A DNA stretch of 64,000 nucleotides, from assembly GCA_050633205.1 (NCBI GenBank), contig JBOEGA010000019.1, forward strand, positions 5,711 to 69,710, in the 5' to 3' direction. Origin of the DNA: Methyloligellaceae bacterium (GTDB lineage Bacteria > Pseudomonadota > Alphaproteobacteria > Rhizobiales > CBDHHC01). The position numbers and the translations under genes are program-made. Of this stretch, positions 53,239 through 60,557 are shown piece after piece. The notes beneath the pieces were generated by a model. It made no database searches. It saw only the letters and a program-made list of their open reading frames with translations, and was not told where the DNA came from. Numbering within the stretch: position 1 is the first letter of the stretch; the number at the start of each line of letters is the position of its first letter.

Positions 53239-53638
53239 ATCTACACCCCCGCTGTTTAATTGTGTTTCCCGATCATTCTGAGATGATCCCCCGGTTCCAC
53301 CAGATACGGGCCCTTTCTTTTGAAGGCCTGCGAGAACCTGCAGCCAGATAATCAGATTCTCTCTTCATAACAGCCTCCCCAGGATGGCTTATTCACATAA
53401 TGCACAGGGCTTTTTTCATGTAGATATTACACTGTGTTCCATACGACACAAATTCCATACGAGAAACTCAAAACCTTCCCCATTGCATAGGATGGCAATG
53501 GTGCTCAGGTAGTAAAACCGGGCCCGACCTTACGAAAATTTAATTTATCTGCAACTGTGTTGTAAGGAGATGCCACCTATATTCCAATCAAGAATGATTA
53601 TGGATCATTGTAGGATTCCTATAGGAGATGCACACCAG

Positions 53639-55135
53639 ATGTTGAAGGAAAACAAGACATTGTCAAATATGCAGACTGCGTCAGACAAACGTAAATGGAA
53701 GAAAACTGCTCTGTTCGCTATGGCAGGCGCAGCAACATTGGGACTTGCAAGCCTGCAACTCGCAGATGGTATCTCTTCTGCCAAAGCAGACCCCAAAGCA
53801 ACAACAGGCCAGAGCGTTCCATTGGGATATGCGCCAATAAGCTTTGCCGACCTGGCTGCAAAAGTAAAACCTGCTGTCGTAAGCATCAACGTAAAAAGCG
53901 GCGGTAAAAGCAACAGACAACTGCCAAAAATCCCGAAAGAACTTTTTAAGCACTTTGGTATTCCGCGCGGGGGGCAGTTACCTCCAAGCCGGGCACAGGG
54001 ATCAGGCTTTATCGTTTCTGAAGAGGGTTTTGTCGTAACCAACAATCATGTGGTTGAAAAAGGTGTGGAAATTACTGTCACATTTGAAAATGGCGATACT
54101 CTTCCGGCAAAGCTGATAGGAAGTGACCCTCGTACAGATCTGGCACTATTGAAGATTACCAAAAAAGGCAAATATCCGACAGTTAAATTCGCGGAAAAAG
54201 CTGCACGCGTTGGTGACTGGGTTCTTGCTGTTGGTAACCCGTTTGGACTTGGCGGCACTGTAACTGCTGGTATCGTTTCCGCTAAAAACCGCAACATCGG
54301 CTCAGGACCATATGACTATCTTCAAATTGATGCTGCAGTGAACCGTGGCAACTCCGGTGGCCCTGCATTTAACCTTGCCGGCGAAGTCGTTGGTGTAAAT
54401 ACCGCTATTTTCAGCCCTTCCGGCGGTAATGTTGGCATCGCCTTTGCTGTTCCGGCGACATTGACGAAAAAAGTTATAGAACAACTGAAGCAGTCAGGTT
54501 CTGTTAGCCGTGGCTGGTTGGGTGTACATATTCAGACTGTAAGTGAAGATATTGCTGAAGGTCTGGGCATGGAAAAAGCATATGGCGCGATCGTAACCAA
54601 AGTTACAAAAGGCGGCCCTGCAGATAAATCTGACCTGAAAAACGGCGATGTCATCATCAATGTAAACGGTTCAGAAATCAAGGACTCCAGAGATCTTGCA
54701 AGAAAAATTGCTGCCCTTCCTCCAAAACAGGATGCCAATCTGATTGTATTCCGTGACGGCAAGGAAAAACCGATCACTGTGAAACTTGGCCTGTTCCCTA
54801 ACAACAGACAGTTTGCCCGTCTGCAAAGCGGTCAGGAACTGGGTGAAGAGCTTGATGATCTTGGTCTGACTCTGGCACCGGCGAACAGCCGTCCGGGCAA
54901 AGACAAAGAAGGCGTTGTCATTACAGAAGTAGCGCCCGGCTCTGCAGCTCTTGAAAAAGGCCTGAAAGCTGGTGACGTTATCCTGAAAGCGGGCAGATCA
55001 ACGGTTAACCAGCCGGATGATGTGATTAAAGCAATCTCGGCAGCTAAAAAAGCTGGGCAGCCAAGCATTCTGCTTTACATCAAATCAGGTGATCGCCGCA
55101 GCTTTGTAGCTGTATCCCTGAAAAAAGCCAGTTAA
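53639..55135 (+). CDS. degP: Do/DegP family serine endoprotease with two PDZ domains
   Basis: AQGSGFIV, TNNHVV, DLAL, QIDAAVNRGNSGGP; AGGAG SD before ATG 53639. Confidence 0.9.
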   Translation: MLKENKTLSNMQTASDKRKWKKTALFAMAGAATLGLASLQLADGISSAKADPKATTGQSVPLGYAPISFADLAAKVKPAVVSINVKSGGKSNRQLPKIPKELFKHFGIPRGGQLPPSRAQGSGFIVSEEGFVVTNNHVVEKGVEITVTFENGDTLPAKLIGSDPRTDLALLKITKKGKYPTVKFAEKAARVGDWVLAVGNPFGLGGTVTAGIVSAKNRNIGSGPYDYLQIDAAVNRGNSGGPAFNLAGEVVGVNTAIFSPSGGNVGIAFAVPATLTKKVIEQLKQSGSVSRGWLGVHIQTVSEDIAEGLGMEKAYGAIVTKVTKGGPADKSDLKNGDVIINVNGSEIKDSRDLARKIAALPPKQDANLIVFRDGKEKPITVKLGLFPNNRQFARLQSGQELGEELDDLGLTLAPANSRPGKDKEGVVITEVAPGSAALEKGLKAGDVILKAGRSTVNQPDDVIKAISAAKKAGQPSILLYIKSGDRRSFVAVSLKKAS

Positions 55136-55149
55136 TAAAAATACATAAT

Positions 55150-55181
55150 GAGTATGGCGCGGTAGATATTGCGCCATACTC
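55150..55181 (+). terminator. hairpin after degP (terminator or stabiliser)
   Basis: GAGTATGGCGC...GCGCCATACTC. Confidence 0.6.
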
Positions 55182-55228
55182 CTTCTATTATACTCTGATA
55201 TCTTGAATTCATATAAAGACTATAGCCC

Positions 55229-55909
55229 ATGCGCATACTCATCATAGAAGATGACAAGGAAATGTCTGCCTTTCTCGTGAAGGCCTTCAGGGAAAGCGGC
55301 CATCAGGCCGATGCGGAATGGGATGGTGAAGCAGGCCTGGCAGCAGCCAGAAATGACAACTATGATGTTCTCATCATTGATCGAATGCTTCCCAAAATGA
55401 ATGGTCTCACAATCATCGAAACACTCCGCTCGGAAGACAATCAGACCCCGGCACTCATTCTCAGTGCACTGGGAGAAGTCGATGACCGTGTTACTGGCCT
55501 GAGAGCCGGAGGTGATGACTATCTGACAAAACCCTATGCCTTTTCAGAACTGCTTGCCCGTATTGAAGTTCTGGCAAGAAGACAGCGCCCGGAAGAAGCC
55601 AACACACGCTATGTCGTAGCTGATCTCGTGCTCGATAGACTGGCCCATAAAGTCAGCCGTGGCTCGGAAACTATCCTGCTCCAGCCCAGAGAATATCGCC
55701 TGCTGGAATATCTCATGAAATATGCTGATCAGGTCGTAACACGAACCATGCTTCTTGAAAATGTATGGGACTACCATTTTGACCCTCAGACAAATGTAAT
55801 TGATGTACATATTTCCAGGCTGCGCTCGAAGATAGATAAAAACTTCGACAAGCCATTGCTGCACACCATTCGCGGCGCGGGGTATATGGTCAGTGACAGC
55901 TCTGTATAA
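55229..55909 (+). CDS. OmpR-family response regulator
   Basis: Receiver (IEDD, IDRMLP, GGDDYLTKP) plus winged helix (VWDYHFDPQTNVIDVHISRLR, TIRGAGY). Confidence 0.95.
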   Translation: MRILIIEDDKEMSAFLVKAFRESGHQADAEWDGEAGLAAARNDNYDVLIIDRMLPKMNGLTIIETLRSEDNQTPALILSALGEVDDRVTGLRAGGDDYLTKPYAFSELLARIEVLARRQRPEEANTRYVVADLVLDRLAHKVSRGSETILLQPREYRLLEYLMKYADQVVTRTMLLENVWDYHFDPQTNVIDVHISRLRSKIDKNFDKPLLHTIRGAGYMVSDSSV

Positions 55910-57293
55910 ATTATTCAAGACAACAACATTTCGTTTGTCGTTGATCTTTCTGGTCTTCTTCGGAATTTCCGCAAGTCTTGCTCTCGGTTATATCTACTGG
56001 AACGCCAAAGTCCTGATGATCCGCCAACTCAATCAGACCGTAGAAGCAGAAATACTTGGCCTGTCAGAACAATACAGACAAGGTGGAATTCGCCAGCTCG
56101 TAAAAACCGTTGCTGCAAGAAGTAAAATTCCCGGCAACAGCCTCTATCTGGTCACAAGCCCCAGCGGTGAGTATATTGCCGGGAACCTTGCCACAATTAC
56201 AGTCCAGCTCTGGAATACCGAGGGCCCTGTACGCTTTACCTACAAGCGTCCAGCACAGGGTGGCCCGGAAACCAGGCAGGCCTTTGCAAAAGGCTTCCGC
56301 CTTCAGGATAACTTCAGATTACTTGTCGGACGAGATATTGAAGACCGTAGAATATTTGAACGCGTAATTGCGGATGTTCTCTGGGGGCTAGGCTTTATTA
56401 CTCTGTTTGGAATATTCGGTGGCTGGCTTGTAAGCAGAAATATCCTTTCCCGCATCGATACCGTTACAGATGCAAGCAAACGCATCATGAGTGGAGACCT
56501 GAGTGAACGGATTCCTGTAAAAGGCAGCGGCGATGAGCTGGACCGGTTATCTATAAACCTAAATGAAATGCTTGATCGTATTGAACGTCTTATGGCTGGT
56601 ATGCGTGAAGTTTCAGACAATATAGCTCACGACCTCAAAACACCACTCAACAGAATGCGAAACCGTATTGATGCAGCCCTGAGAGATGGTACTACCAGCC
56701 CGGCCCATAAGGAAATCCTTGAAACAACAATAGAAGATGCAGACTTCCTGATACAGACTTTCAATGCACTGCTGAGCATTGCCCGCATGGAAGCAGGCAC
56801 AGGCAGCAGAAATATGGAAACGATGGAAATCGCGCCAATATTATCTGATATTGCTGAACTCTATGAGCCGGTAATGGATGAACAGAATTTTGAACTGAAA
56901 ACAGATTTTCAGGGTAATATAATTCTGAACATTGACAAACAACTGATAGGTCAGGCAGTTGCCAACCTTATTGATAATGCTATAAAATATGCAGCTCATA
57001 CAGAAACTGAGAATACCGACCGTAAACCGCAAATATTTATCGCCACAACCAGACAGGGCGACTTCGGAGAAATTATAGTTGCAGATCACGGTCCGGGTAT
57101 CCCTGAAGAAGACAGGGAGCATGTTTGCGAACGCTTTGTCAGACTGGAAAAAAGCCGTTCACTTCCCGGAAGCGGCCTTGGATTAAGCCTCGTGTCTGCT
57201 GTCGTTCAGCTTCATAATGGCAAACTTATTCTGGAAGATAACGATCCAGGTCTGAAAGCAATAATCCAGTTACCTCTGGTAGAAAAAAAATGA
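55893..57293 (+). CDS. HAMP-domain sensor histidine kinase
   Basis: Two TMs, HAMP, IAHDLKTPL H-box, NLIDNAIKY, DHGPGI, GSGLGL. Confidence 0.94.
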   Translation: MTALYKLFKTTTFRLSLIFLVFFGISASLALGYIYWNAKVLMIRQLNQTVEAEILGLSEQYRQGGIRQLVKTVAARSKIPGNSLYLVTSPSGEYIAGNLATITVQLWNTEGPVRFTYKRPAQGGPETRQAFAKGFRLQDNFRLLVGRDIEDRRIFERVIADVLWGLGFITLFGIFGGWLVSRNILSRIDTVTDASKRIMSGDLSERIPVKGSGDELDRLSINLNEMLDRIERLMAGMREVSDNIAHDLKTPLNRMRNRIDAALRDGTTSPAHKEILETTIEDADFLIQTFNALLSIARMEAGTGSRNMETMEIAPILSDIAELYEPVMDEQNFELKTDFQGNIILNIDKQLIGQAVANLIDNAIKYAAHTETENTDRKPQIFIATTRQGDFGEIIVADHGPGIPEEDREHVCERFVRLEKSRSLPGSGLGLSLVSAVVQLHNGKLILEDNDPGLKAIIQLPLVEKK

Positions 57294-57967
57294 AACCCGC
57301 TTTGAACCTAAAATGGCCCGACACCGAAGCGCAGGCTCTTGATCTTCAGTCTGAATTGGCACCAAAGGTCATCAGGGAAGACACCTTCAGTACCATTAAA
57401 TACATTGCCGGGGTTGATGTCGCCTATAGCTCTGATGAAAACGAACTTTACGCAGCGGCAGTTGTGCTGGACGCTGAAACATTAAAAACCATGGAAACAT
57501 CTGTAACAAAAAGCAGAGTGACCTTCCCCTATATCCCCGGCCTTTTCAGCTTTCGCGAACTGCCCCCACTTATGACTGCTCTGGCAAACCTTAAAACCAT
57601 AGCGGATCTGATCGTCTGCGATGGTCAGGGGCTGGCACATCCCAGACATTTTGGACTTGCATGTCATCTGGGTCTGATGTTTGACACACCAGCAATCGGG
57701 TGCGGTAAAACACGCCTGTCAGGAGAGCATAAGATGCCCGCAGAAGAGAGGGGTTCTGCAGCTCCGCTCAAGGATCAGGGGGAAACTGTTGGATCTGTAT
57801 TACGAACTCAAAATGGAGTTAAGCCGGTTTATGTCTCAATTGGGCATAAAATCTCACTTGCAACCGCATGTGACTGGATACTAAAACTCTCCCCGAAGTA
57901 CAGACTGCCAGAAACAACAAGAGCTGCAGATCAGGCTGTCCGTGCAGCTTCCAAAAAGCCTCTTTAA
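57290..57967 (+). CDS. nfi: endonuclease V (deoxyribonuclease V)
   Basis: IAGVDVAY, FPYIPGLFSFRE, DGQGLAHPRHFGLACHLG, PVYVSIGH, YRLPETTRAAD. Confidence 0.94.
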   Translation: MKPALNLKWPDTEAQALDLQSELAPKVIREDTFSTIKYIAGVDVAYSSDENELYAAAVVLDAETLKTMETSVTKSRVTFPYIPGLFSFRELPPLMTALANLKTIADLIVCDGQGLAHPRHFGLACHLGLMFDTPAIGCGKTRLSGEHKMPAEERGSAAPLKDQGETVGSVLRTQNGVKPVYVSIGHKISLATACDWILKLSPKYRLPETTRAADQAVRAASKKPL

Positions 57968-58045: not shown

Positions 58046-58255
58046 ATGTCTCAGGATGTTATTAATCAGATAATTCATGTTGTAGATCACTATGACGACC
58101 TGCAGGAACCAATGGAAGAGCTAAACCAGCTCAGAAAGACCCTGCAAAGACAAGCCCATGACGCTACAGATGCACAGCTTGAAATCTATGACCGAGCTTA
58201 TGAAGAAGCAGGAAAGATTATCCGGAAAATGGCCAAAGACTTTCCAGAATTATAA
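58046..58255 (+). CDS. small hypothetical protein (helical)
   Basis: 69 aa with AAAGGA SD and a downstream terminator. Confidence 0.6.
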   Translation: MSQDVINQIIHVVDHYDDLQEPMEELNQLRKTLQRQAHDATDAQLEIYDRAYEEAGKIIRKMAKDFPEL

Positions 58256-58276
58256 TTTTCTTTTTAATTAAAATGA

Positions 58277-58314
58277 ATAACTGCCCTACAGGTTATTTCC
58301 TGTAAGGCAGTTAT
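58277..58314. terminator. bidirectional terminator hairpin
   Basis: ATAACTGCCCTACAGG...CCTGTAAGGCAGTTAT between convergent genes. Confidence 0.7.
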
Positions 58315-58317
58315 CTT

Positions 58318-59457
58318 TTAAGAACAACTGCGCGCGCACCTCTTATATAAATATGTGCCCTTACCCCATACATCGATACATTCCCGACGTATTCTAATGC
58401 AGCGCTGCTCTTTTCTGTCAATCTCCGCGCTGTTTTCGGAAACATCACTATTTCTGTCACCATCACATTCTCTGGCACATTTTCTATAGCTGGTGCCCGT
58501 ACTGCCCCACTGGGCACGACACCCTCTTCTGAGTTTTACGCAATAACTGGCGCTGCGCTCCTCATTACGCTCGCGGCGGCGGCTCTGAGGTTCCCGACTT
58601 GAGCAATGGCGAATGCAATGCTTGTACTCTGTACTGGTTCTCCCCCATCTGGCCCGACAGTTATAACGTAGTTTTCTGCAGGAATTACTCGCCTGGTTAC
58701 GGGGGGCATCAGTTCTCTCTCGAGAAGGAGCACTATCTCTGCGTGTAGGAATATTATCAACCTCATCATCAACCCGGCTCAGACATTTGCGGGCACAATA
58801 TCTATAGCTCGGCCCGGTTCTGCCCCAGCTTCTGCGACATGCATTTCTTAAATTCTGACAATATCTGCCACTCTGGGTAATAACTGGTGGTGTACGCCTC
58901 GCAGGTCTCTGCCTTGCCGGCTTCCGTTTCACCTGTTTACGGCTAAGGCATTTACGGGCACAATAACGGTAATCCGGTCCTCTACTGCCCCATCTCACAC
59001 GACAGGAACGGCGTACCCGCTGGCAATAACGATTGCCTTTATGAATTGCAGGCCTGCGTTTGCTGAGACGGCTTTTAGGTCTCTTGATACATTTTCTGGC
59101 ACAGTATCTGTAATTACGCCCCGAACGCCCCCACCGTTTACGACAGGAATTCCGCACACGCTGGCAATAGTTTCTTCCACGCCTAACAATAGCGGGTCTT
59201 CGCCTGGACTTTCTTTTACCCACACAACCACGGGCACAACTCTGGTATTTGCGTCCTTTACCAAATAACCAGCGACAGTGATTTCTCAACCTGACACACC
59301 TGCGACTTCGGTTCAAAGCAGCAACTTTTATAAAACTGGAAGAAATTTGGTTTACACCAATAGCGCTGCGATCAGGATTAAGATGAACTGCGTTTACTCT
59401 GGTAGAAACAGAAACAACAGCCAGCAAAAACAGCGTAATTGTTATCAGATTTCTCAT
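58318..59457 (-). CDS. secreted Arg/Cys-rich protein with seven Cx6Cx12-13Cx3C repeats
   Basis: Signal peptide MRNLITITLFLLAVVSVSTRVNA with GAGGGAAG SD; seven copies of C..xR..CR..WG..G..Y..CAR.C. Confidence 0.82.
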   Translation of the reverse strand: MRNLITITLFLLAVVSVSTRVNAVHLNPDRSAIGVNQISSSFIKVAALNRSRRCVRLRNHCRWLFGKGRKYQSCARGCVGKRKSRRRPAIVRRGRNYCQRVRNSCRKRWGRSGRNYRYCARKCIKRPKSRLSKRRPAIHKGNRYCQRVRRSCRVRWGSRGPDYRYCARKCLSRKQVKRKPARQRPARRTPPVITQSGRYCQNLRNACRRSWGRTGPSYRYCARKCLSRVDDEVDNIPTRRDSAPSRERTDAPRNQASNSCRKLRYNCRARWGRTSTEYKHCIRHCSSREPQSRRRERNEERSASYCVKLRRGCRAQWGSTGTSYRKCARECDGDRNSDVSENSAEIDRKEQRCIRIRRECIDVWGKGTYLYKRCARSCS

Positions 59458-59753
59458 TACAGAAATGCTTCCCTCAATTTTCGGCAATCCCACCCGTTAT
59501 TATGAAAAATGATCAAGCCGATTTTGTTAACCTTTACATTTTGATAACATTATAAATTACAACAAAGTATGAACAGGAAGGCGTAATCAACTGCAATAAT
59601 GAGGAAAAATACCACTAATATTGAGAATGCCAGCCTCATTATTCCGTATAATGGAATTGAATTCTCCTCCAATAGGTATCTGGCCCAATACCGAAGTTTA
59701 AACCATGATTGCCCTCACATTTTCAGACCTGCTATCAAATTGAGGGGAAATAT

Positions 59754-60557
59754 ATGTCTAACAGTGAAGCCGCCACAGAAAACAGGGAAGTCATTATCTA
59801 TGACATTATGGCATGTAATGTTTATTGGGACTTTGAAAATACACCGCTGAATAAAGAACAGCACAAGTTCGTAATTTCACTACACCCTACTCCCGGCATA
59901 GAAACTCCCGAACTTATTGAAAGTATCAGGGTAACAGGACCTGACGGTTATGAAGCTTCCATCTCAAACCAGAAGCAGAACAATGTGAACAGAGACGGCT
60001 GGATATATGATCCAAGCCTGAACTATTACTGGTACATGATGAATACCAATAACGGTTTCATGAAAGCTGGTGAATATACCGTAACCATTACATGCAAGGA
60101 CGGTTCTGTTGTAACCCGTTCCCGTATCCAGGATGACTCTGCATCACAGGCTGTACTTGATGCATATATCAACAACCGCGATACGATCTTCAATTCCTTC
60201 ACGCCATCTGAGCAAAATCCGCTTTCACCGGAATCTCCGCTGAAACACATTGTTGCGAACTGGAAGACAACAAAAGATGTAGCCGGTGTCGATACGTTTA
60301 ATGTTTTACGCATCGGAGAGGCATCAACATCGCTGGAGTTCGATACTCAAAATCTGGCATGGTGGGATAATATCTTTATGCAGCGTGTCTATAATAATGA
60401 CCCGCTTGCCGGGCAGAACAGGAATGAAGTAACAATTGCTGCAGAACTGAAACCTGCAACAAGCTATGGTTACTTTATTGAAACAATTGATTCAAATGTG
60501 CAGGGCGAAACGAATATCTGTATCCTGCAGCCGCACCACTTCTTCACGACACCATAA
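59754..60557 (+). CDS. hypothetical protein, beta-rich
   Basis: GAGGGG SD before ATG 59754; long open frame ending at a strong hairpin; family not recognised. Confidence 0.72.
   Translation: MSNSEAATENREVIIYDIMACNVYWDFENTPLNKEQHKFVISLHPTPGIETPELIESIRVTGPDGYEASISNQKQNNVNRDGWIYDPSLNYYWYMMNTNNGFMKAGEYTVTITCKDGSVVTRSRIQDDSASQAVLDAYINNRDTIFNSFTPSEQNPLSPESPLKHIVANWKTTKDVAGVDTFNVLRIGEASTSLEFDTQNLAWWDNIFMQRVYNNDPLAGQNRNEVTIAAELKPATSYGYFIETIDSNVQGETNICILQPHHFFTTP

Follow-up and report, generated by a model that had tools for sequence, protein, structure and literature searches.

A cysteine-rich, strongly basic protein of seven four-cysteine modules in a Methyloligellaceae bacterium, and its family of small signal-peptide-bearing relatives

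Helical hairpins held by two nested disulfide bonds occur in the twin-Cx9C (CHCH) proteins and in certain two-disulfide toxins. The DNA analysed here, a 64,000-nucleotide stretch of contig JBOEGA010000019.1 of a Methyloligellaceae bacterium (hereafter the window), carries a gene for a 379-amino-acid protein, P0001, in which a four-cysteine module with a predicted fold of this kind is repeated seven times. The likeness to the CHCH proteins and hairpin toxins lies in the predicted helical hairpin with its putative two disulfides, with a wasabi-receptor toxin chain among the weak rows of a structural alignment (VIA-align), whereas the cysteine spacing (6 and 3 instead of 9) and the compartment or organism are different, and neither a sequence match nor a significant structural match was obtained.

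The plant alpha-hairpinins have the motif C-X3-C-Xn-C-X3-C, or a six-cysteine form, and the proteolytic release of modules from their modular precursors is documented (PMC11591084). They share with P0001 the helix-loop-helix structure (predicted for the bacterial protein), the cationic character and the presence of differing modules within one precursor. An initial annotation of the gene, made from the sequence alone, proposed a bacterial analogue of these peptides, which agrees with the helix-loop-helix prediction and with the occurrence of alpha-hairpinins among the weak structural neighbours; however, the modules of P0001 follow C-x6-C...C-x3-C and not the defining C-X3-C...C-X3-C, so that they are to be seen as analogues and not as members of the group. 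No sequence relationship between the two was detected, the structural matches were non-significant, and PMC11591084 treats alpha-hairpinins from plants only. The principle of disulfide-stapled helical hairpins within a modular secreted protein is already known.

A further point of comparison is BA14K (PF07886), which we take to be a small secreted protein of Brucella and other Rhizobiales, confined to the same bacterial order and composed of a signal peptide, a basic/aromatic low-complexity stretch and a short cysteine-containing C-terminal domain; by this presumed layout it resembles many relatives of P0001, in which a signal peptide and a low-complexity tract are followed by a C-terminal cysteine module. 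In the literature, BA14K is described as a secreted protein under the control of stress and envelope systems. Nevertheless, PF07886 was matched neither by P0001 (E ≤ 1) nor by three of its relatives (E ≤ 10) or 32 proteins of its family (E ≤ 0.1), and this genome contained no BA14K match above the cut-off. The Pfam models that we take to represent Sel1-like-repeat cysteine-rich and CHCH proteins likewise gave no match for P0001. Unlike the gene clusters of ribosomal peptides and bacteriocins, the P0001 locus has among its immediate neighbours neither a modification enzyme nor a dedicated exporter, a protease or an immunity gene.

Architecture of P0001 and selection on its gene

A regular-expression search of P0001 found exactly seven modules, spread over residues 54–378 and containing all 28 cysteines of the protein. 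This is the number of repeats given in the initial annotation, whose sixth repeat is real, although it was quoted with one extra residue after the last cysteine. The spacing between the four cysteines is 6/12/3 in module 1 and 6/13/3 in modules 2–7. When the P0001 sequence was shuffled 20,000 times, the mean number of module patterns was 0.0043 and the highest 2; the observed sevenfold occurrence is far beyond chance. The N-terminus, described initially as a signal peptide, has the corresponding features (one Arg, about 15 hydrophobic residues and V-N-A) and looks like that of a Sec substrate, with a predicted cleavage site behind residue 23.

The composition of P0001 is dominated by arginine (21.9%), with 7.4% cysteine, 6.1% lysine and 1.3% histidine. 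The mature part contains 104 Lys and Arg residues vs. 24 Asp and Glu residues, and the net charge from the first cysteine onward amounts to +76. Each module has a net charge of +5 to +10, while the linkers fall into strongly basic ones (linkers 1–3; +9, +9 and +10) and near-neutral or acidic ones (linkers 4–6; −1, +2 and −3), in accordance with the earlier remark that the later linkers turn acidic. The linkers are 19–34 residues long, poorly conserved and of low confidence in structure prediction. The modules also differ among themselves, with 35–68% identity to module 2, the most similar being modules 2–4 (59–68%). Linkers 1 and 2 have an R-R-P-A-I stretch in common, so that the unit of duplication would have extended into the linker.

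The open frame is a genuine gene, subject to purifying selection. In pairwise comparisons between modules, the pooled proportion of synonymous differences (pS) was 0.83, i.e. saturated, vs. 0.38 for non-synonymous differences (pN), and Tandem Repeats Finder detected no DNA-level repeat at the module period; taken together, these results indicate that the repeats are old and have been kept at the protein level. Contigs from four public sequencing runs covered the gene without insertions or deletions and contained nine coding single nucleotide polymorphisms (SNPs) relative to the window, seven of them synonymous and two causing conservative changes in linkers (I90V and K133R, the latter resting on a low-depth contig of 61 bases). 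If about one quarter of the sites are assumed to be synonymous, the probability of at least seven synonymous changes out of nine is about 0.001 by our own arithmetic. The runs, labelled plastic-surface biofilm metagenome, come from one study and may include the source sample of the genome itself; no RNA run was listed for this stretch. The strand opposite to the gene contains no competing long frame, and a terminator-like hairpin directly after the stop codon is a further sign of a real gene.

A family of small four-cysteine proteins

The repeat did not match any characterised domain: in Pfam and NCBIfam all rows for P0001 were far below the cut-offs, the lone Pfam row being VATC (E 0.099). 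Neither the whole protein nor a 128-amino-acid paralogue described below retrieved anything but itself in word-indexed homologue searches, and a whole-protein search of 60 related genomes gave chance-level rows only. No close homologue of P0001 was found in the same-genus genome or in the representative of the same family, and a whole-protein query of a one-genome-per-species collection (185,579 species) produced 81 pattern matches, none of which was confirmed.

Relatives were recognised by profile searches. The profile of an alignment of the seven P0001 modules (A1), when run against 400 genomes from this order, returned, amid much noise, several small signal-peptide proteins with a C-x6-C-x12/13-C start and a C-x5-C end, scoring 21–27 bits per module. 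The genome that carries P0001 encodes two further family members, both with C-x5-C as the last gap: a 128-amino-acid two-module protein (contig C178, L002:194-580, forward strand) and a 151-amino-acid protein (contig C3, L033:1198-1653, forward strand) in which a Lys/Arg/Tyr-rich tract precedes the only module and a Pro/Phe-rich tail follows it. The A1 matches included the 128-amino-acid protein, a 118-amino-acid two-module protein from the same-family genome and single-module proteins of about 80 residues. A 14-module profile (A2) was then used in a HMMER search of 1.84 billion cluster representatives and matched 38 proteins at E ≤ 1e-3. We consider 34 of these, P0001 included, to be credible family members, and this outcome of the profile search proposed in the initial annotation places the seven-module protein among single- to multi-module relatives, hence it is not an isolated invention. 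P0001 was the top scorer (261 bits over seven stretches), its own modules having been part of the A2 profile. The census is a lower bound, as proteins with one module come close to the score cut-off and the library keeps one protein per 50% cluster. Four larger proteins (P0013, P0020, P0025 and P0034; 579–878 amino acids) were set aside, since they share only a short helix-2 motif. In these large repeat proteins a Y-R-R-C-A-R-R-x-G-C-like motif recurs every ~120–130 residues.

A typical family member is a protein of 80–190 amino acids with a signal peptide and one to three C-x6-C-x12/13-C-x5-C modules. Across the 34 proteins, 23 have two modules, five have one, four have three, and single proteins have five and seven. 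Among 75 family modules, the gap between the second and third cysteine (C2–C3) is mostly 13 (43 modules) or 12 residues (31 modules), with one case of 11, and the C3–C4 gap is 5 in 58 modules, 9 in 10 and 3 in 7, the last group coming entirely from P0001. The last cysteine is located at most three residues from the C-terminus in 30 of the 34 proteins. Most members are basic (27 of 34 with a net charge of at least +5 from the first cysteine), and five are neutral or acidic. Many relatives consist of a signal peptide, an Arg/Tyr/Gly/Pro-rich low-complexity tract, often long, and a single C-terminal module. Two subtypes were distinguished: (i) an acidic one rich in His, Glu, Asp and Arg (P0004, P0012, P0028 and P0036) and (ii) one with C-x9-C as the last gap and Gly-rich linkers (P0003, P0018 and P0023), with five modules in P0003. 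A Pfam scan of 32 further family proteins detected no domain, except in P0038 (301 amino acids), which combines two acidic modules with an FGE-sulfatase-type domain (PF03781, E 1.6e-54). This domain fusion, the only one seen, is a hint at a possible accessory role of the module.

Over its first 127 residues, from the signal peptide through the leader, module 1 and the linker to module 2, P0001 can be aligned along the full length of this segment with 23 two-module proteins (alignment A5, 24 rows), and all eight cysteines are invariant in this alignment. Ala23, preceding the predicted cut and following a hydrophobic stretch, is conserved in at least 90% of the rows. A short hydrophobic-K-V motif stands before the first cysteine, usually as K-V-Q in the family and as K-V-A in P0001. 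The features shared by P0001 and its family include the signal peptide with the conserved alanine at the cut, the hydrophobic-K-V(-Q) motif, the C-x6-C-x12/13-C spacing, an arginine in helix 1, an aromatic-Gly turn, a Tyr or Phe three residues before C3, an aliphatic-Arg pair after C3 and the C-terminal position of the last module. P0001 differs in having seven modules, a C3–C4 gap of 3 instead of 5 or 9, and much longer linkers. Judged by its sequence, P0001 belongs to a hitherto unnamed family of small four-cysteine proteins with predicted secretion, among which it is the largest, and because everything else aligns we read its short last gap as a two-residue shortening within the family. The simplest history would be the internal duplication of a one- or two-module member together with a two-residue deletion in the C3–C4 gap.

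The A2 profile matched 25 of 400 other genomes of the order (E ≤ 1e-4). In a class-wide sample, three of 400 other genomes gave matches (E ≤ 1e-3), in frames of 31, 33 and 64 amino acids, which are probably due to chance. The same-family genome contained three matches and the same-genus genome none, and four of the 60 relatives (G002, G034, G050 and G055) carry family members. A pattern scan with the commonest C-terminal subtype found 54 loci, assigned to Hyphomicrobiaceae, Dichotomicrobium, Anderseniella, Tepidamorphus, Stappia, Hongsoonwoonella, Rhodobiaceae, Methyloligellaceae, Aestuariivirgaceae, Devosia, and unclassified Alphaproteobacteria or Pseudomonadota. On these sequence matches, the family would so far be almost confined to one alphaproteobacterial order, its named carriers being of the Hyphomicrobiales type. 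Family genes are often arranged in tandem, with three within 3 kb at one locus (L055) and two each at four others (L044, L050, L051 and L062).

Source names, available for few family proteins, read "hypothetical protein", and full-text literature searches retrieved no description of this four-cysteine family. The domain family, its bacterial host range and the sevenfold polycationic form appear to be previously undescribed.

Predicted fold and possible function

Module 3, folded alone with AlphaFold2 from a 39-row module alignment, was predicted as a helix-loop-helix hairpin (helix 2–16, a four-residue turn and helix 21–32) with a mean predicted local distance difference test (pLDDT) value of 84.2; a prediction for a single module had been recommended in the initial annotation. 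For residues 1–127, modelled with the family alignment, AlphaFold2 predicted a signal helix (residues 2–15) and two hairpins, 52–65/69–78 (pLDDT 86–91) and 89–109/114–125 (pLDDT 93–96 over residues 101–120). The first helix of module 2 begins right after a linker proline and runs into the linker. The leader (pLDDT 48–64 over residues 21–50) and the linker are of low confidence, and the predicted template modelling score (pTM) of 0.34 for residues 1–127 implies no defined packing between modules. The ESM Atlas model of the whole protein was poor (pLDDT 0.54), which fits a beads-on-a-string arrangement, and the ESM Atlas search gave no usable feature match, all structure rows having a template modelling (TM) score ≤ 0.21.

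In the module alignment, column 8, three residues after C1, is hydrophobic in 37 of 39 modules; at the turn, column 16 is aromatic or His in all 39 and column 17 is Gly in 35; column 23, three residues before C3, is aromatic and column 27, just after C3, is aliphatic in every module. These positions and the cysteines, spaced at i, i+3/4 and i+7, form one face per helix, and the remaining positions are mostly Arg, with no exposed hydrophobic face evident. In the AlphaFold2 model the cysteines lie on facing sides of the two helices, with C2 and C3 at a like depth from the turn and C1 and C4 likewise, from which we infer that each module is probably stapled by nested C1–C4 and C2–C3 disulfides. 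The genome encodes DsbA-like proteins and DsbB, so periplasmic oxidative folding is plausible.

Comparisons with known structures gave no match at E ≤ 1e-3 in Foldseek against the PDB (all matches E ≥ 3) and no row with Z ≥ 5 in VIA-align wide (Z ≤ 4). The weak rows, none of them significant, included CP12, a scorpion toxin with two disulfides, and the plant alpha-hairpinins VBP-8, VBP-10, luffin P1 and vicilin leaders; the solved alpha-hairpinin structures 6wqj, 6o3q, 6o3s, 7uv1 and 9q1l (Foldseek E ≥ 5.9, VIA Z 3.5–3.8) were no better than unrelated helical hairpins, a 34-residue helical hairpin being too generic for fold searches to settle its relationship.

The explanation that we tentatively prefer, at somewhat short of an even chance, is that P0001 acts intact as a multivalent binder or cross-linker of polyanions in the cell envelope or biofilm matrix. 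The protein would be exported by the Sec pathway, lose its signal peptide and be oxidised in the periplasm into seven helix-loop-helix hairpins, each with two nested disulfides around a tiny core. The core would be made up of a single aliphatic or aromatic residue of helix 1, Trp-Gly at the turn, Tyr and, in helix 2, one small aliphatic side chain, leaving a surface of Arg, Lys or polar residues, and the hairpins would be strung on flexible linkers like beads. Binding would be electrostatic, the use for which hairpins with an almost wholly cationic and polar surface on flexible linkers seem best fitted, with lipopolysaccharide, acidic exopolysaccharide and extracellular DNA as candidate ligands, and the seven modules would provide avidity. 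Disulfide formation and pairing, the final location, the absence of processing and the polyanionic ligand are what we infer in this explanation. That the protein would act intact rather than cut is suggested by the unenriched dibasic pairs, the helix of module 2 entering the linker, and the lack of a protease, exporter or immunity gene shared by the family loci. Several points weigh against this explanation. The polyanionic ligand is a guess from charge alone, and the five neutral or acidic proteins among the 34 weaken a family-wide polyanion role, since the existence of acidic, His-rich members means that the family conserves the scaffold and not the positive charge. Predicted-disordered linkers of 19–34 residues are just what a protease would cut, and plant analogues of the same architecture are cut (PMC11591084). 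Moreover, a Sec signal delivers the protein to the periplasm only; the genome contains two secretins, which have no established link to P0001.

The main idea of the initial annotation was that P0001 is a polyprotein precursor, which envelope or extracellular proteases would cleave in its linkers to release seven stapled cationic peptides with antimicrobial or competitive action, which we regard as unlikely. The architecture is that of the plant modular precursors, in which a signal peptide is followed by up to 12 four-cysteine helix-loop-helix modules liberated by proteolysis (PMC11591084), and the long, poorly conserved, low-confidence linkers, the divergence of the modules (35–68% identity to module 2, as in a peptide cocktail), the alpha-hairpinins and two-disulfide scorpion hairpin toxin among the weak fold neighbours, and the plastic-surface biofilm label of the runs, denoting a competitive habitat and possibly the source sample itself, all agree with it. 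However, we found no sequence mark for cleavage. The linkers, said to be rich in KR/RR pairs, do contain such pairs, but not in excess of composition (17 vs. 14.0 ± 2.5, with a fraction of 0.15 at or above the observed value), and another 13 pairs lie within modules (14.9 expected). No protease, exporter, transporter or immunity gene accompanies the family, either next to P0001 or at 28 family loci; the usual family form, with two modules and short linkers, is unlike a precursor; the modules appear to be without the exposed hydrophobic face usual in membrane-active peptides; and the structural matches were all non-significant (Foldseek E ≥ 3, VIA Z ≤ 4). An extended form, which we consider more doubtful again, would have a plant-style precursor evolve independently and be cut into seven polycationic hairpins acting on competitors or on the marine biofilm matrix, the family then being an unrecognised, cluster-free, Sec-dependent class of ribosomally synthesised stapled peptides in Alphaproteobacteria.

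A role of the modules in metal binding or redox chemistry, as a periplasmic metal store or buffer or as a redox buffer, seems improbable. It would account for the four invariant cysteines per module, the His/Glu/Asp-rich subfamily (P0004, P0012, P0028 and P0036) and the fusion of two acidic modules to an FGE-sulfatase-type domain in P0038, but the cysteines, predicted at i/i+7 and i/i+4 in mid-helix, are unlike the usual CxxC knuckles of Cys4 sites, exported cysteine pairs are normally oxidised in a cell with DsbA and DsbB, and histidine makes up only 1.3% of the protein. Least credible, to the point of near dismissal, is a chance or decaying open frame devoid of function. The missing close homologue in the same-genus and same-family genomes and in the 185,579-species collection would fit such a frame, while a sevenfold repeat kept in the protein at saturated synonymous sites, seven synonymous SNPs of nine with no indels, a cysteine pattern found seven times vs. 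0.0043 expected, colinearity with a family of 34 credible proteins and the absence of a competing long frame on the other strand all speak against it. The remaining probability belongs to functions that cannot be named.

If the intact polyanion binder and the family assignment are true, P0001 would be the most extreme form of a new, taxonomically narrow domain family without a Pfam or NCBIfam entry, based on a two-disulfide helical hairpin of about 28 residues. As stable peptide scaffolds, small hairpins stapled by disulfides are much valued, and a bacterial, Sec/Dsb-compatible version, whose natural module surfaces range from about +10 to acidic, would lend itself readily to production and engineering. 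These proteins may form an overlooked part of the envelope or biofilm matrix in marine and environmental Hyphomicrobiales; alternatively, they may be a cluster-independent class of secreted peptides.

Gene signals and neighbourhood

The features of the locus are collected in Table 1.

Table 1. Features of the P0001 gene and its surroundings (positions in the window; module limits run from the first to the last cysteine)
Feature	Position	Strand	Basis and remarks
DegP-like serine protease, OmpR-type response regulator and histidine kinase	53570-57293	+	three genes in a row
Endonuclease V	57290-57967	+	follows the kinase with a 4-base overlap
69-amino-acid orphan ORF	58046-58255	+	convergent with P0001 across the terminator; acidic; no signal peptide by eye
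Terminator-like 17-pair hairpin (inverted repeat)	58276..58315	both	consensus scan; directly after the stop codon of P0001
P0001 coding sequence (379 amino acids)	58318..59457 (stop codon included)	-	open frame and translation; sole long frame here
Module 7, residues 353-378	58324..58401	-	C-x6-C-x13-C-x3-C; a single residue left before the stop
Module 6, residues 306-331	58465..58542	-	C-x6-C-x13-C-x3-C
Module 5, residues 260-285	58603..58680	-	C-x6-C-x13-C-x3-C
Module 4, residues 200-225	58783..58860	-	C-x6-C-x13-C-x3-C
Module 3, residues 145-170	58948..59025	-	C-x6-C-x13-C-x3-C; module folded singly with AlphaFold2
Module 2, residues 98-123	59089..59166	-	C-x6-C-x13-C-x3-C; predicted helices 89-109 and 114-125 (AlphaFold2)
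Module 1, residues 54-78	59224..59298	-	C-x6-C-x12-C-x3-C; predicted helices 52-65 and 69-78 (AlphaFold2)
Leader, residues 24-53	59299..59388	-	predicted disordered; ends with the family hydrophobic-K-V motif shortly before the first Cys
Signal peptide (predicted), residues 1-23	59389..59457	-	Arg near the N-terminus, hydrophobic stretch, V-N-A ahead of the predicted cut; -3/-1 rule
Shine-Dalgarno-like GAGGGAAG	59468..59475	-	by eye; ends 10 nucleotides upstream of the ATG
270-amino-acid orphan ORF	59745-60557	+	divergent from P0001; no signal peptide by eye

We prefer the ATG at 59457 as the start, since it is preceded at 10 nucleotides by GAGGGAAG, whereas the in-frame GTG at 59493 has no comparable stretch by eye. 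The hairpin beyond the stop codon looks like a bidirectional terminator common to the P0001 gene and the convergent 69-amino-acid ORF. Scanning for sigma-70 promoters gave no candidate site in front of the gene, and a search of the window with an EcfG-type promoter pattern gave 0 matches. A perfect TATAAT is located at 59549-59554 on the reverse strand, about 90 nucleotides upstream of the ATG, with no good -35 hexamer by eye, and was not reported by the promoter scan of the window.

On one side the P0001 gene has the 69-amino-acid ORF and endonuclease V as neighbours, on the other the 270-amino-acid ORF and a gene of the cyclase family. The two orphan ORFs, proposed initially as partners of P0001, gave no Pfam or NCBIfam match above the cut-off and, among 61 genomes (this one and the 60 relatives), were found in this genome only, so that they are missing from the relatives bearing family members; the proposal finds no support, nor does the family have conserved neighbours. 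When 67 flanking ORFs from 28 family loci were compared with Pfam, they proved to be unrelated housekeeping genes, with recurrences only within one genus, and no protease, exporter, transporter or immunity gene was shared across genera. Endonuclease V and the 69- and 270-amino-acid ORFs were not found in the same-genus genome with the queries used. The histidine kinase is kept in the same-genus (67%) and same-family (63%) genomes, and synteny ends at the end of this gene; in the same-genus genome the regulator and the kinase are followed by a 985-amino-acid ORF that is glnE-like by eye.

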